Source: a virus
Taxonomy: Duplodnaviria; Heunggongvirae; Uroviricota; Caudoviricetes
Reading direction: 5' to 3' (one strand)
IMG/VR virus record: IMGVR_UViG_2693429700_000016
Length of the DNA: 6,193 bases
The notes beneath the pieces were generated by a model. The model was not told where the DNA came from. It searched no databases and saw only the letters and a list, made by a program, of their open reading frames with translations. Numbering within the stretch: position 1 is the first letter of the stretch; each line of letters opens with the position of its first letter. Below, in pieces: positions 1,941 to 6,193 of the stretch. A program made the position numbers and the translations under genes.

Positions 1941-1959
1941 AAGGCGGTAGTACCGCCTT
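1941..1959. terminator. Perfect hairpin (AAGGCGGTA / TACCGCCTT) between convergent Q and cassette; likely intrinsic terminator for the minus-strand cassette
   Basis: Inverted repeat 1941-1949 / 1951-1959. On the minus strand it is followed by a U-rich tract (revcomp of 1929-1940 = TTTTATTATTTT). The plus-strand downstream tract is not U-rich. Overlaps the stop codon (1958-1960) of the last cassette gene. Confidence 0.55.
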
Positions 1960-2572
1960 AATGATCGAATCGTTGTATGTTTTCATGGAATCTACAAAAG
2001 TGAATAGATATTTTGAATAGTAAAATGTAGAAACCAACTTGACTTAAAGTTATGGCTTTGCATTTATCATTCAAGAGTTTTTGTAATTCTTCCGTTGGTA
2101 ATTGGTATACATCATCAAGAAAAACGATGCATTCTTCTAAGTTGTCTGATTCAGGAAGATAAAAAATATTAGTAATTAACTGCTTCCTTATAGCATCAAT
2201 TTTGCTATCTATTGAAGTCTTAGAAACTCCGTTGGAGAGAAGAATAGCTTCGAACTTAGATAAACTTACTAACGGAGCAAAGACTGCACGCATTGGCACA
2301 TCACGATTATTACTTGTATCTATATCGCAACTGTTGCTTAATATAATTCCTCGTGTTTTTTTAGTCCCTTTAATTGAATATACTGTAAGCTCCTTAAATA
2401 TATCTCCCTGAAGTGCAGCATTTTTCAGATCATCATGATAATTGGTAAGGTAGTAGTTAGTGTTTTCAGGGAAATCTCTAAGTGCATTTATTAGCCCTTC
2501 TTTTTGAGGAGCTGTTAAATAATATGGGATTTGATCTTTGAATTTCTCGATATCAAAAATGTTATTACTCAT
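1958..2572 (-). CDS. Cassette gene C: hypothetical protein (~204 aa), no recognisable motif
   Basis: Long ORF in strongly AT-rich DNA. ATG at 2572-2570 (alternative GTG at 2575-2573) lies directly after the TAA stop (2578-2576) of gene B, suggesting translational coupling. Ends at the terminator hairpin. Confidence 0.7.
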   Translation of the reverse strand: MSNNIFDIEKFKDQIPYYLTAPQKEGLINALRDFPENTNYYLTNYHDDLKNAALQGDIFKELTVYSIKGTKKTRGIILSNSCDIDTSNNRDVPMRAVFAPLVSLSKFEAILLSNGVSKTSIDSKIDAIRKQLITNIFYLPESDNLEECIVFLDDVYQLPTEELQKLLNDKCKAITLSQVGFYILLFKISIHFCRFHENIQRFDH

Positions 2573-2575
2573 CAC

Positions 2576-2920
2576 TTAATCCAAGTATAAATCCCACAGT
2601 GAAGCATGAACGACTTTATTTATTTCACTGCCTAAAGACACCTGGTTTGTTGATAATTTTTCATAAAAGTTTGTCATCGAGACTGCAAGTCTTTGATCAA
2701 CTGAGATTGTGCTCCCTGCTTTATATGTTTGTGTGATGGAATGAACTGAATCGGTAGTTGAAGACTTATACTCCAAAGCGTGATTTTTGACGATTAAACT
2801 TTGTTGAGGACCATGCTGTTGATTTTGGGCAATGTCTGTTAATGCTGTTATATGCAGACCATATAAAACCAAAGTTAATACTTGAAGTTGAGCTCGATAA
2901 ACATGATGAGACGGATACAT
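2576..2920 (-). CDS. Cassette gene B: small hypothetical protein (114 aa) with hydrophobic N-proximal segment
   Basis: ATG at 2920-2918 preceded on the minus strand by GGTGGT about 7 nt upstream (revcomp of 2921-2935 = AAATGGTGGTATGAT). Residues ~10-30 (AQLQVLTLVLYGLHITALTDIA) are hydrophobic. Stop abuts the start of gene C. Confidence 0.6.
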   Translation of the reverse strand: MYPSHHVYRAQLQVLTLVLYGLHITALTDIAQNQQHGPQQSLIVKNHALEYKSSTTDSVHSITQTYKAGSTISVDQRLAVSMTNFYEKLSTNQVSLGSEINKVVHASLWDLYLD

Positions 2921-2935
2921 ATCATACCACCATTT

Positions 2936-3685
2936 CTATTTGTAGGATGGTTCTAGTTCTTGAATTGTTGACTCTTTAAGGCAACTAAAGAAAGCTAATT
3001 TATTACAGGAGTGAAGATCATCAAGAATTTTTTTGGGTTCGTTTTTAAACTTATCTATTTCATCAGTATTAGTGATTTGCCTAATACTGTCTATGTCTAG
3101 GATTAGTCCTTTTTTATTAAATTCTCCATTATCTGACATGACTAAAGCATGAGATAATATTTGAATTATATTTAGAAATGCGCCTTCATTTTTATCGATT
3201 CTGATATTGATCGGATAATTAGACATAGACTCGCCAGCCATATTTAAGCTGACGTTTAGCTTATCAAATAAATTAGAATCGTCTTCTTTTGGGAAAAAAT
3301 CTACATACTTTAATGAGTAGCGGATGATGTTGTCATTTAAATTTAATTTGTTAAGCTCATTTAATACATGAATGATTTTTTCTCTAAAATGACTCCACCC
3401 TTGATATTTGGTGCTGGTGGATACAACAACACCATGGTCACTTAGTCCAATATAGTACCCTTCGATTTCGAGGCGACTGACAACTGCGTAATGTAATTGT
3501 TCATCTCCCTCACGAACATTTTTAGGTATTTGACTGGGTGGTAAACTAATTACTGGTTTTGTACAACCTAGAGCGTGAAAAAGAAACCCTGGAACTATTT
3601 CCGATATTTGTGTTTCTTTAGAAAAACGCATTTCGAAAGCAGCTTCGATTACTGGTTGTTTTGATAGAGATGTTGGAATGAGCAT
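2936..3685 (-). CDS. Cassette gene A: hypothetical protein (249 aa); N-terminal P-V-I-E-A-A-F-E-M-R-F motif resembles TIGR04255-type proteins of unknown function (recognition from memory, unverified)
   Basis: 750-nt ORF, AT-rich codon usage, ATG at 3685-3683, stop TAG 2938-2936 is 15 nt upstream of gene B start. The motif PVIEAAFEMRF plus later IIRYSLKYVDFF and GLILDIDSI blocks fit my memory of that family. Confidence 0.7.
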   Translation of the reverse strand: MLIPTSLSKQPVIEAAFEMRFSKETQISEIVPGFLFHALGCTKPVISLPPSQIPKNVREGDEQLHYAVVSRLEIEGYYIGLSDHGVVVSTSTKYQGWSHFREKIIHVLNELNKLNLNDNIIRYSLKYVDFFPKEDDSNLFDKLNVSLNMAGESMSNYPINIRIDKNEGAFLNIIQILSHALVMSDNGEFNKKGLILDIDSIRQITNTDEIDKFKNEPKKILDDLHSCNKLAFFSCLKESTIQELEPSYK

Positions 3686-3912
3686 TTAAAACCCATAGTA
3701 TGTTTTATGAGCTGATTGGATTTTGAGCATAGCTACCGCACGAATCTTCGAGGAAGATCCAAACATGTGCCTAATGTCGCATCATGCTCAAGGCGGCATA
3801 AATTTTGTTTACTGAGTATAAGATTAACAACCATTAACTTCCATCAAAAATGCTAACGCGTACGCAAAAACTATTGTATCGTGTTAAGAGTGGTCACTTC
3901 GCCACACAGCTT
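3686..3912. promoter_or_regulatory. Divergent control region: expected site of the cassette promoter (minus) and possibly the phage late promoter/qut (plus); exact elements not resolved
   Basis: Non-coding, compositionally intermediate stretch between the cassette start and the lysis leader. Only weak sigma70-like hexamers found by eye, e.g. TTAACA 3824-3829 with AAAAAT 3846-3851. Positional inference only. Confidence 0.3.
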
Positions 3913-3942
3913 AAACCCGCCGTCGAGCGGGTTTGTCGTTTC
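3913..3942 (+). terminator. Hairpin AAACCCGC-CGTCGA-GCGGGTTT followed by GTCGTTTCT: candidate tR'-like intrinsic terminator or late-leader structure upstream of S
   Basis: 8-bp GC-rich stem (3913-3920 / 3927-3934) with 6-nt loop and U-rich tail on the plus strand. Flanking GGTCACTTCG (3892-3901) recalls the lambda pR'-tR' leader from memory. Confidence 0.4.
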
Positions 3943-4085
3943 TGGACCCGGCTATTTGTTGAGCCTGGTCTATACCGCAGTTATCCATTGGCTCGGCCTC
4001 TTTTACGTTTCCGCTTCTGATTTGCGGTACATGATGTTCCCTCAATTTGCACCTCCTGTATTGGCGAGGTGAGAGATAACTACAA

Positions 4086-4412
4086 ATGCCTCATAACCCA
4101 AATACCTGGCTGGAGTTGGTCCAGAGCTGGTGGCGTGGAGACACACCGCTGGGCGCAGTGATTATGTCGATTGTTATGGCTGGTTTACGTATTGCCTATT
4201 TTGGCGGTGGTGGCGGCTGGAAGCGAAAAACACTCGAAATTCTACTCTGTGGTGCTCTGACGCTGACTTTTGCATCCGCTCTTGAGTATGTCGGATGGCC
4301 TAAATCACTATCTGTTGCCATTGGTGGTGGGGTGGGGCTGATCGGTGTCGATGCTATTCGTGGGGCTGCAATGCGAGTAATCGGTAACAAATTTGGTGGC
4401 TCTAAGGAGTAA
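4086..4412 (+). CDS. S: Holin (class I, lambda S-like three-TMD architecture, but a divergent allele)
   Basis: 108 aa. Three hydrophobic segments (about residues 22-39, 49-69, 75-91). Shares the LR..Y.GG...K and IG.D.I pattern with lambda S from memory. Immediately upstream of R; stop TAA 4410-4412. Confidence 0.8.
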   Translation: MPHNPNTWLELVQSWWRGDTPLGAVIMSIVMAGLRIAYFGGGGGWKRKTLEILLCGALTLTFASALEYVGWPKSLSVAIGGGVGLIGVDAIRGAAMRVIGNKFGGSKE

Positions 4413-4415
4413 TTT

Positions 4416-4892
4416 ATGCAGGTACTAAATTCCCAGCGTAAAGCTTTCCTCGATATGGTGGCTTGGTCAGAAGGAACGGATAACGGACGACAACCGACAC
4501 GTAACCACGGTTATGACGTTATTGTTGGTGGTGAACTCTTCACTGATTACTCCGATCACCCTCGCAAACTTGTCACGCTAAACCCGAAACTCAAGTCAAC
4601 AGCCGCCGGACGTTACCAGCTTCTTTCACGCTGGTGGGATGCTTACCGTAAACAGCTTGGCCTGAAAGATTTTTCTCCAGAAAGCCAGGACGCTGTAGCT
4701 CTGCAGCAGATTAAAGAGTGTGGCGCTTTACCGATGATTGATCGCGGTGATATTCGTCAGGCAATTGACCGTTGCAGCAATATCTGGGCTTCACTGCCGG
4801 GTGCTGGTTATGGTCAGTTCGAGCATAAGGCTGACAGCCTGATTGCAAAATTCAAAGAAGCAGGCGGAACGGTCAGAGAGATTGAGGTATGA
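4416..4892 (+). CDS. R: Endolysin R (lambda-type lytic transglycosylase)
   Basis: 158 aa. Sequence [81 protein letters not shown]... is near-identical to lambda R as I remember it. AAGGAG at 4404-4409. Confidence 0.95.
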
Positions 4893-5350
4893 GCAGAGTA
4901 ACCGCGATTATCTCCGCTCTGGTTATCTGCATCATCGTCTGCCTGTCATGGGCTGTTAATCATTACCGCGATAACGCCATTACCTACAAAGCCCAGCGCG
5001 ACAAAAATGCCAGAGAACTGAAGCTGGCGAACTCGACAATTACTGACATGCAGGTGCGCCAGCGTGATGTTGCTGCGCTCGATGCAAAATACACGAAGGA
5101 GTTAGCTGATGCGAAAGCTGAAAATGATGCTCTGCGTGATGATGTTGCCGCTGGTCGTCGTCGGTTGCACATCAAAGCAGTCTGTCAGTCAGTGCGTGAA
5201 GCCACCACCGCCTCCGGCGTGGATAATGCAGCCTCCCCCCGACTGGCAGACACCGCTGAACGGGATTATTTCACCCTCAGAGAGAGGCTGATCACTATGC
5301 AAAAACAACTGGAAGGAACCCAGAAGTATATTAATGAGCAGTGCAGATAG
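4889..5350 (+). CDS. Rz: Spanin inner-membrane subunit Rz (i-spanin)
   Basis: 153 aa. ATGA start/stop overlap with R. N-terminal TM segment ([16 protein letters not shown]) then coiled-coil-like region; near-identical to lambda Rz from memory. Confidence 0.95.
5109..5291 (+). CDS. Rz1: Spanin outer-membrane lipoprotein Rz1 (o-spanin), embedded in the +1 frame of Rz
   Basis: 60 aa. Lipobox VVGC and proline-rich [13 protein letters not shown]. Fully nested inside Rz as in lambda. Confidence 0.9.
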
Positions 5351-5381: not shown

Positions 5382-5675
5382 TTATTGTGAGCAATACACA
5401 CGCGCTTCCAGCGGAGTATAAATGCCTAAAGTAATAAAACCGAGCAATCCATTTACGAATGTTTGCTGGGTTTCTGTTTTAACAACATTTTCTGCGCCGC
5501 CACAAATTTTGGCTGCATCAACAGTTTTCTCCTGTCCAATTCCCGAAACGAAGAAATGATGGGTGATGGTTTCCTTTGGTGTTACTGCTGTCGGTTTGTT
5601 TCCAACAGTAAACGTCTGTTGAGCACATCCTGTAATAAGCATTGCCAGAGCGGCAGAAAACAACATTTTTTTCAT
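5382..5675 (-). CDS. bor: Bor-family outer-membrane lipoprotein (lambda bor-like)
   Basis: Minus-strand ORF; start chosen at internal ATG 5675-5673 (MKKMLFSAALAMLITGCAQQTFTV...) with AGGA about 8 nt upstream. Lipobox ITGC. Near-identical to lambda Bor from memory. The ORF-track N-terminal extension (5676-5723) is probably not translated. Confidence 0.9.
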   Translation of the reverse strand: MKKMLFSAALAMLITGCAQQTFTVGNKPTAVTPKETITHHFFVSGIGQEKTVDAAKICGGAENVVKTETQQTFVNGLLGFITLGIYTPLEARVYCSQ

Positions 5676-5858
5676 CTTATTATCCTGCATTGTTAAAAAC
5701 GGCAGAATCCTATGTGACAACAATTAAACGATAGTTAAATGGATTGATGAAATTTAAAACTATATAGGTGTACGGTCAGACTATTGGAGGTAGTCAGGAT
5801 TTGAATGTCAGTCTGTTGTCGGCATTCTGGCAATGCAATTTGGATAAAGCGGGGATTA

Positions 5859-5978: not shown

Positions 5979-6069
5979 GTTGAACCTCCTTAATTAATGT
6001 TATTCGAGTGAGGAAGGCATTCTGTCCTTCTATAGTGTCCAGTAAATCAAACAGGAAACTTGTCCAACG

Positions 6070-6094
6070 TGAACCGCCCCGGGTTTCCTGGAGA
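6070..6094 (+). repeat. IS terminal inverted repeat (IRR-like)
   Basis: TGAACCGCCCCGGGTTTCCTGGAGA; partner of 109-133. Confidence 0.75.
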
Positions 6095-6111
6095 GTGTTT
6101 TATCTGTGAAC

Positions 6112-6193
6112 TCAGGCTGCCAGATCATCGTTTCCGATGGAAGCATAATAAGCTTTTTCTGCTTCTGCCGGAGGAGTATGGCCCAGCCTTCCC
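6112..6193 (-). CDS. IS3-family transposase OrfB, C-terminal fragment (partial)
   Basis: Minus-strand frame gives ...GRLGHTPPAEAEKAYYASIGNDDLAA then stop at 6114-6112, about 42 nt inside the IS terminus. The TPPAEAEKAYY tail looks like IS3-family integrase C-termini. Frame choice is my judgement. Confidence 0.5.
   Translation of the reverse strand, partial: GRLGHTPPAEAEKAYYASIGNDDLAA

Follow-up and report, generated by a model that had tools for sequence, protein, structure and literature searches.

Gene B of the 6,193-nt stretch of viral DNA analysed here (the window) is a real, widely conserved gene that occupies the middle of a translationally coupled three-gene cassette. We propose that its 114-aa product would be the small middle subunit of this cassette, between a TIGR04255 family protein (A) and a protein with a MazF/CcdB-type fold (C), and that it may serve a toxin-antitoxin-like or abortive-infection module as an antitoxin-like adaptor docking onto C and/or A. 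This reading is drawn by analogy with known toxin-antitoxin pairs, and we put its probability at roughly 0.4. The genes of the cassette and their signals are located in the window as follows.

2936-3685, minus strand: gene A, TIGR04255 family, 249 aa; stop codon TAG at 2938-2936
2931-2926, minus strand: Shine-Dalgarno-like GGTGGT, within the 15-nt spacer between A and B (2921-2935)
2576-2920, minus strand: gene B, 114 aa; start codon ATG at 2920-2918, stop codon TAA at 2578-2576
1958-2572, minus strand: gene C, the third gene, 204 aa
1941-1959, minus strand: intrinsic-terminator-like hairpin and T-run, directly 3′ of the C stop codon

RefSeq annotates B at identical coordinates (WP_125282403.1, hypothetical protein). 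The ribosome-binding site that an earlier note on this sequence had recognised in GGTGGT, one mismatch from GGAGGT, is present, and its spacing from the B ATG reads as 5 nt (ATGAT) instead of the ~7 nt then given. The B stop codon is followed by GTG and then by ATG. RefSeq begins C at the ATG (2572), so that the claim of a C start immediately after the B stop holds if the GTG is used (0 nt) and is off by a 3-nt gap with the RefSeq start. B is a full-length member of phrog_5728 (E 3.8e-59, residues 1-114 aligned to profile positions 4-119 of 119). The E. coli alleles of B carry two synonymous changes in one case and one synonymous change plus G21S in the other, SNPs too few for estimating selection on B.

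The window covers part of an E. coli lambdoid-type prophage, in which the minus-strand A-B-C block sits between the antiterminator gene Q and the holin and lysis genes.

141-572: truncated KilA-N gene, C-terminal part only, apparently cut by the left insertion sequence
574-1569: DUF968 gene
about 1588-1932: antiterminator Q
4086-4412: holin
4416-4892: lysozyme
4889-5350: Rz
5109-5291: Rz1 lipoprotein gene, embedded in Rz
5382-5678, minus strand: bor-like lipoprotein gene, on the opposite strand to Rz

The GC content of the block is 30-36%, against 50-57% in its flanks, and the sequence of the block matches that of E. coli ACN002 at 100% identity; RefSeq has all three genes there, and an intact KilA-N gene lies upstream of DUF968. 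The terminator-like hairpin after C (AAGGCGGTACTACCGCCTT then TTATTATTTT; 8 pairs, 5 of them G-C) probably marks, at 1959-1941, the 3′ end of an A-B-C transcript. Two overlapping terminator-like hairpins also lie at 3912-3950 on the plus strand, ~150 nt upstream of the holin gene, and bring to mind the short late-leader terminator that Q of lambdoid phages acts on; if they are that terminator, the cassette lies between Q and the late promoter region. Rfam, tRNA and repeat scans revealed no RNA families, tRNAs or tandem repeats, which ruled out a ToxIN-type RNA antitoxin array.

At the edges of the window, 31-nt inverted repeats (109-139 and 6064-6094) belong to insertion-sequence ends (1-139 and 6064-6193) that bracket the prophage fragment and that we take to resemble IS3. 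A transposase-like ORF begins at 78 and reads leftwards, and homology of the prophage to other E. coli genomes starts at position 132. The end sequences have over 47,000 matches in E. coli genomes, and the whole window is contiguous in no complete genome searched (best coverage 81%).

To follow B beyond the window, we used the 81 loci with an identified C ORF among 86 loci (6 enterobacterial prophage loci and 75 of 80 genome loci), which cover Gamma-, Beta- and Alphaproteobacteria, Desulfobacterota and Muiribacteriota. A B-size ORF (92-141 aa; 97-127 aa once over-extended starts are trimmed) ends just before the C homologue in every one of them, and A lies upstream of B in 78. The earlier note had named a lack of conservation in syntenic loci as a reason to discard B; the ORF is kept in 81/81. 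phmmer with the window B detects 50 of the 81 locus Bs (49 excluding the window's own). The same A-B-C arrangement, with an A of ~250 aa and a C of ~200 aa, recurs in prophages of Kluyvera, Citrobacter, Klebsiella and Yersinia, and the cassette is also found in Bacteroidota (a Phocaeicola plasmid and a Williamwhitmania genome locus, the latter one of five loci where C was missed by the motif filter) and in the Pseudomonas phages Dobby and VW-6S. A tblastn search of phage records with B gave no match at E up to 1e-3, and the phage copies were located via A. Among complete E. coli genomes, 92 of 5,426 (about 1.7%) carry the cassette; all 92 carriers have it in full at 99% identity or more, with all three genes annotated and no partial versions.

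The junctions between the genes are conserved as well. At 60 of 78 loci there is an 8-nt overlap between the stop codon of A and the start of B, which fixes the first B residues as M-N/S-x; the B start codon is ATG in 76 of 78, overlapping the A stop; and B and C are generally separated by -2 to 11 nt. The E. coli and Kluyvera cassettes have, in place of the 8-nt overlap, a short spacer that brings a ribosome-binding site of its own. The architecture of the cassette and its translational coupling are features of the family. The view of B in the earlier note as a small protein of an accessory module is borne out; the module is of the moron or defence-island type, and B is genuine and translationally linked to its neighbours.

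These data also dispose of the explanation that B is a non-functional chance ORF or a decaying remnant. Functional annotation of B was found nowhere, a word-indexed search with B returned only its own 90% cluster, and a single-sequence phmmer search recovered just 14 relatives among 1.84 billion representatives. That small number points to a fast-evolving family: 217 relatives come up with a family profile (all of them lacking Pfam domains and informative names), a PHROG family exists, and the position and size of B in 81/81 loci across phyla, its conserved C-terminal motif, its start codon and its intact annotation in 92/92 E. coli carriers refute the chance-ORF explanation, to which we give a vanishingly small probability. 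C itself has a large family (469 matches).

Several single loci deserve mention. Gene A is apparently fragmented in two of the genome loci (L015 and L083) in which B and C are intact; two cases are too few for significance, and may hint at which component is dispensable. In phage VW-6S (MF975720, locus L096) the B homologue is a 105-aa ORF at L096 3228-3545, of which GenBank annotates only a 141-nt 'integrase, XerC' fragment (L096 3405-3545), and for the A homologue of phage Dobby the annotated start is internal (1483 instead of 1090). Both annotations look like errors.

The surroundings of the cassette differ between hosts. It occupies the Q-lysis gap or the nin region in enterobacterial prophages, adjoins CI in VW-6S, is flanked by the integrase and portal genes in the P2-like phage Dobby, and is also found in small genomic islands adjoining integrases. 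One copy shares its island with Wadjet components, toxin-antitoxin genes and reverse transcriptases. Among 127 immediate neighbours at 35 diverse loci, phage integrase was the commonest family (6 cases), few restriction-modification genes were seen, the remainder were unrelated housekeeping genes, and no fourth conserved partner gene was found. The cassette is a self-contained, horizontally mobile three-gene module in prophage cargo positions and small islands.

We scanned A, B and C together with 24, 52 and 91 members of their respective families against Pfam, PADLOC and NCBIfam, and the only match was TIGR04255 for A. The product of A, the first gene of the cassette (RefSeq WP_000907077.1), matches this NCBIfam model with E 2.6e-27 and 96.2 bits (cut-off 30), residues 7-244 aligning to profile positions 2-251 of 252, and belongs to phrog_5464 (E 3.4e-132). 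It has no Pfam, PADLOC or meaningful PDB sequence match. For B, neither the window protein nor 52 relatives gave a Pfam or NCBIfam match, and a PDB sequence-profile search returned no meaningful match and no antitoxin among its results.

The product of C, a member of phrog_4575 (E 1e-96), has a MazF/CcdB/Kid-type fold core with N- and C-terminal extensions, as found by two methods. Kinship to MazF at the sequence level could not be demonstrated: Pfam PemK and CcdB are absent in the 91 members scanned, the PDB sequence-profile search gives no meaningful match, and an alignment of the C profile to a small MazF/Kid/ChpBK alignment has a sensible register at an hhalign probability of 1.1%, which is not significant. 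Using the register from hhalign and manual alignment, we find K or R at the equivalent of MazF Arg25 in 80 of 91 sequences (88%) and I, V or L at the equivalent of Thr48. The catalytic Arg/Thr pair of MazF is therefore not conserved in C across the 91 sequences, and C may be no RNase, or no toxin. A different set of polar residues is invariant (Q55, G56, D57, N80, C82, D83, N88, Q131, K187, S189, H191, C193, R194 and R201) or nearly so (S79, R90 and E197 in 90/91; K172 in 89/91; H196 in 87/91), much of it in the motifs SNSCD at 79-83, N88/R90 and K..S.HFCRFHE...R at 187-201. Judged from these residues, the polar cluster could be an active or metal site newly formed on an old scaffold.

An AlphaFold2 (AF2) model of B, built with a 111-sequence alignment, and the conservation of the family divide the protein into three parts.

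B residues ~10-31 (2828-2893, minus strand): weakly hydrophobic N-proximal helix, Ala/Gly-rich across the family
B residues 32-73 (2702-2827, minus strand): polar linker, predicted disordered (pLDDT ~40)
B residues 74-114 (2579-2701, minus strand): C-terminal helical hairpin, ending SLWDLYLD

AF2 places the N-proximal helix at residues 6-31 with low confidence (pLDDT ~55) and the two hairpin helices at 74-91 and 97-113 with pLDDT ~80. The linker is poorly conserved and consists of 44% S/T/N/Q/P/G across the family. Pairwise identity over 75 loci is 23% in the N-terminal helix, 16% in the linker and 39% in the hairpin. The earlier note had called everything outside the hydrophobic stretch polar and devoid of a recognisable motif; on the contrary, the last ~40 residues are the best-conserved part of B and carry the family-wide motif F..(V/I)..FY..L...Q..LG.EFE.VL..NLWDLYE(S). 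On the model, hairpin 74-114 is a probable protein-binding module. The family is strongly acidic (median pI 4.3), and the last 42 residues are net negative in 181/181 homologues (mean -6.6). The window B is the least acidic of the family, with a pI of 6.6 and a net charge of -1 against a family median of -7 to -8.

A hydrophobic stretch of about 20 residues, as the earlier note had reported, does exist in B at residues ~12-30 (LQVLTLVLYGLHITALTDI), interrupted by Q13, T16, Y20, H23, T25 and T28. Its suggested role as a membrane anchor fared less well on hydropathy, as B fails to reach the standard membrane-helix thresholds, a 19-residue Kyte-Doolittle mean of at least 1.6 and an insertion energy of about 0 or less. 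Insertion energies were obtained by a position-dependent scan with a length term of 0 at 19 residues. The embedded Rz1 and bor-like genes, ordinary lambdoid features, served among the hydropathy controls.

B (window): best 19-residue Kyte-Doolittle mean 1.47; insertion energy +1.3 kcal/mol
Rz membrane anchor (control): 2.63; -2.2 kcal/mol
Holin helix (control): 1.77; +0.3 kcal/mol
Rz1 signal peptide (control): 1.96; +0.5 kcal/mol
Bor signal peptide (control): 1.38; +1.6 kcal/mol
Buried helix of soluble protein C (control): 1.44; +1.3 kcal/mol

Because the values of B fall among those of the signal peptides and of the buried C helix, we call the hydrophobicity of the segment marginal. It is compatible with a signal-peptide-like helix, an oligomeric membrane helix or a buried protein-protein helix, and a stand-alone membrane anchor is at best weakly supported. 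A lipoprotein was considered and rejected: B has no lipobox, and the Cys of some relatives is a Tyr in the window B.

In the adaptor reading that we favour, the conserved C-terminal hairpin, acidic in nearly all relatives, would dock onto a partner, most probably the downstream toxin-fold protein C and possibly also A. The flexible, fast-evolving linker would join the hairpin to the N-proximal Ala/Gly-rich helix, which may serve for self-association, as a second contact or as a marginal membrane tether, and the effector would be set free once B is released or lost, as might happen on phage infection. We infer that B binds C or A, that C is toxic and that the cassette is a toxin-antitoxin or abortive-infection module; the proposal is made because B is small, acidic, partly disordered and fast-evolving, lies upstream of a toxin-fold gene and has a conserved hairpin. 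In MazF/CcdB/Kid toxin-antitoxin families the small antitoxin gene stands directly upstream of the toxin gene, and B likewise directly precedes, and is tightly coupled to, the MazF/CcdB-fold gene C, with a single terminator-like hairpin after C. Mean pairwise identity across 75 matched loci is lower for B (27%) than for A (39%) or C (46%), so that B evolves faster than either neighbour, and the context of the cassette is mobile and defence-like.

Other observations pull against the adaptor reading. Canonical MazE, Kis and CcdA antitoxins have a DNA-binding domain; B has none, its N-terminus in the AF2 model being a single hydrophobic helix, and hhalign of the B profile to MazE, CcdA and Kis gives probabilities of at most 0.1%. 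C has no detectable sequence kinship to MazF and does not keep the catalytic pair. The window B is a barely acidic outlier, the N-termini of some homologues look like textbook signal peptides, and housekeeping genes make up most of the immediate neighbours of the cassette, restriction-modification and integrase genes being few. The earlier note had left it at an effector or a regulator. The regulator is the likelier of these roles and the effector the less likely, since the hairpin is the most conserved part of B and the downstream product has the toxin fold.

The marginal segment bears on two competing explanations. One is that B is a single-pass inner-membrane protein, a membrane-tethering subunit or a membrane-perturbing effector. 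The segment lies at the same position in nearly all 181 homologues, is not amphipathic (Eisenberg moment 0.03-0.09), reaches an Eisenberg 21-residue mean of at least 0.42 in 82% of them, forms the 26-residue helix of the AF2 model, and carries in relatives the small-xxx-small motif A-G-x-x-A typical of membrane-helix packing. A few homologues are clearly hydrophobic (e.g., L065 at -0.24 and L043 at +0.37 kcal/mol). Yet the Eisenberg mean attains the 'monomeric membrane helix' level of 0.68 in 3%, the Kyte-Doolittle threshold is reached in only 24%, and over 181-184 sequences the median insertion energy is +2.0, with 1% of homologues below 0 and 9% below 1 kcal/mol. Ala makes up 30% and Gly 10% of the segment, the true anchor of Rz is far more hydrophobic whereas the buried helix of C equals B, and the bias in flanking charge is weak (family mean K/R 1.03 on the N-side and 0.71 on the C-side; the N-side count is the higher in 43% of homologues, the C-side count in 18%, and the two are equal in 39%). 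The lower conservation of the segment marks the hairpin as the main selected feature, and we regard a membrane-inserted B as unlikely. The slight N-side positive excess fits a second explanation, that B is exported by a Sec-type signal peptide and that its mature acidic form has a periplasmic or envelope function, such as superinfection exclusion or envelope sensing. The hydropathy of B lies within the range of the Bor and Rz1 signal peptides, and homologues such as L049, VW-6S and P. peli resemble textbook signal peptides, with Ala-x-Ala-type sites by eye in L049 (MQTRYSILLASVTASALLPSVALS/ET) and VW-6S (...LVLCSMSAIA/DT) and an alphaproteobacterial site also judged by eye (...AAIA/AGQ..WP). 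The polar region ahead of the hydrophobic core is, however, long (~12-15 residues), and at least 25% of homologues lack K/R before the core, some having acidic residues there. Export would also remove the hairpin to the periplasm and so separate it from A and C, which have no export signals and between which B is translationally coupled, and an intracellular location accounts more easily for a cytoplasm-style binding hairpin with a toxin-fold partner. We consider export improbable.

The linker and the polar cluster of C bear on a third explanation, in which B is a bait or decoy substrate and the system would be switched on when a phage factor, or C through its conserved Cys/His site, cleaves or modifies the linker. 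A long, disordered, fast-evolving linker between two conserved ends would suit such a role, as would an invariant polar cluster in C (C82, D83, H191 and R194 among it) that is unlike the MazF active site. The idea is purely inferential, however; C has no protease-like fold match, and C193 and H196 are replaced by S and Q in the Phocaeicola homologue. A bait function thus appears very improbable to us.

The antitoxin-like adaptor reading invites comparison with the type II antitoxins MazE, Kis/PemI and CcdA. Like them, B is a small protein encoded upstream of, and coupled to, a MazF/CcdB-fold gene, is partly disordered, and evolves faster than its partner. MazE, Kis and CcdA end in acidic Trp-containing tails, and B has an acidic, aromatic-containing C-terminal region (...NLWDLYES). 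B differs from them in lacking sequence similarity and in having an N-terminal hydrophobic helix instead of an AbrB-type or ribbon-helix-helix domain. Its conserved C-terminal module is predicted to be a folded helical hairpin, not an extended tail, a third gene (TIGR04255) precedes it, and its partner C is without the MazF catalytic residues. B is therefore not a member of the MazE, Kis or CcdA families.

Tripartite modules (paaR-paaA-parE, omega-epsilon-zeta and toxin-antitoxin-chaperone) likewise comprise three co-transcribed genes on mobile elements or prophages and combine one toxin-type fold with a small, for B presumably labile, middle or upstream partner. In contrast to the cassette, none of them is known to contain a TIGR04255 protein, and they have no sequence or Pfam link to it. 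Kiwa (KwaA/KwaB), RexAB and Zorya resemble it as prophage or defence-island cassettes that pair a hydrophobic component with soluble partners; they have several strongly hydrophobic membrane helices, whereas B has one marginal segment. No family of PADLOC-DB v2.0.0 matched A, B or C at E up to 1. The MazF-like protein of 'type II Gabija GajC' belongs to a different system. The three PHROG families of A, B and C (phrog_5464, phrog_5728 and phrog_4575) are all labelled 'unknown function', so membership gives a name and not a mechanism. In the library searched, no paper names TIGR04255 or the three protein accessions, and its papers found under MazF-like, tripartite and prophage defence yielded no description of the cassette.

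It is conceivable, though in our estimate rather unlikely, that TIGR04255-B-C forms a tripartite toxin-antitoxin or abortive-infection system that spans phyla and has not been described before, with A as sensor, C as effector and B as a labile adaptor or antitoxin. In such a system B, possibly membrane-tethered, would couple the sensor A to the MazF-fold effector, and in C an invariant Cys/His/Arg cluster of its own would stand in place of the MazF active site. If this were true, the complete E. coli genomes noted above, as well as relatives across several bacterial phyla and temperate phages, would carry an unrecognised three-protein module built on a toxin fold with an altered active site. 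It would be a new defence or addiction system for the prophage locus between Q and the lysis genes, would give the TIGR04255 family its first functional context, and would offer an example of an antitoxin-like partner without a DNA-binding domain. For gene B alone the gain is modest, namely a name, a domain map and a testable partner. The greater interest lies in its context, an uncharacterised cassette of a TIGR04255 protein, a small acidic protein and a MazF-fold protein that recurs across phyla and phages.
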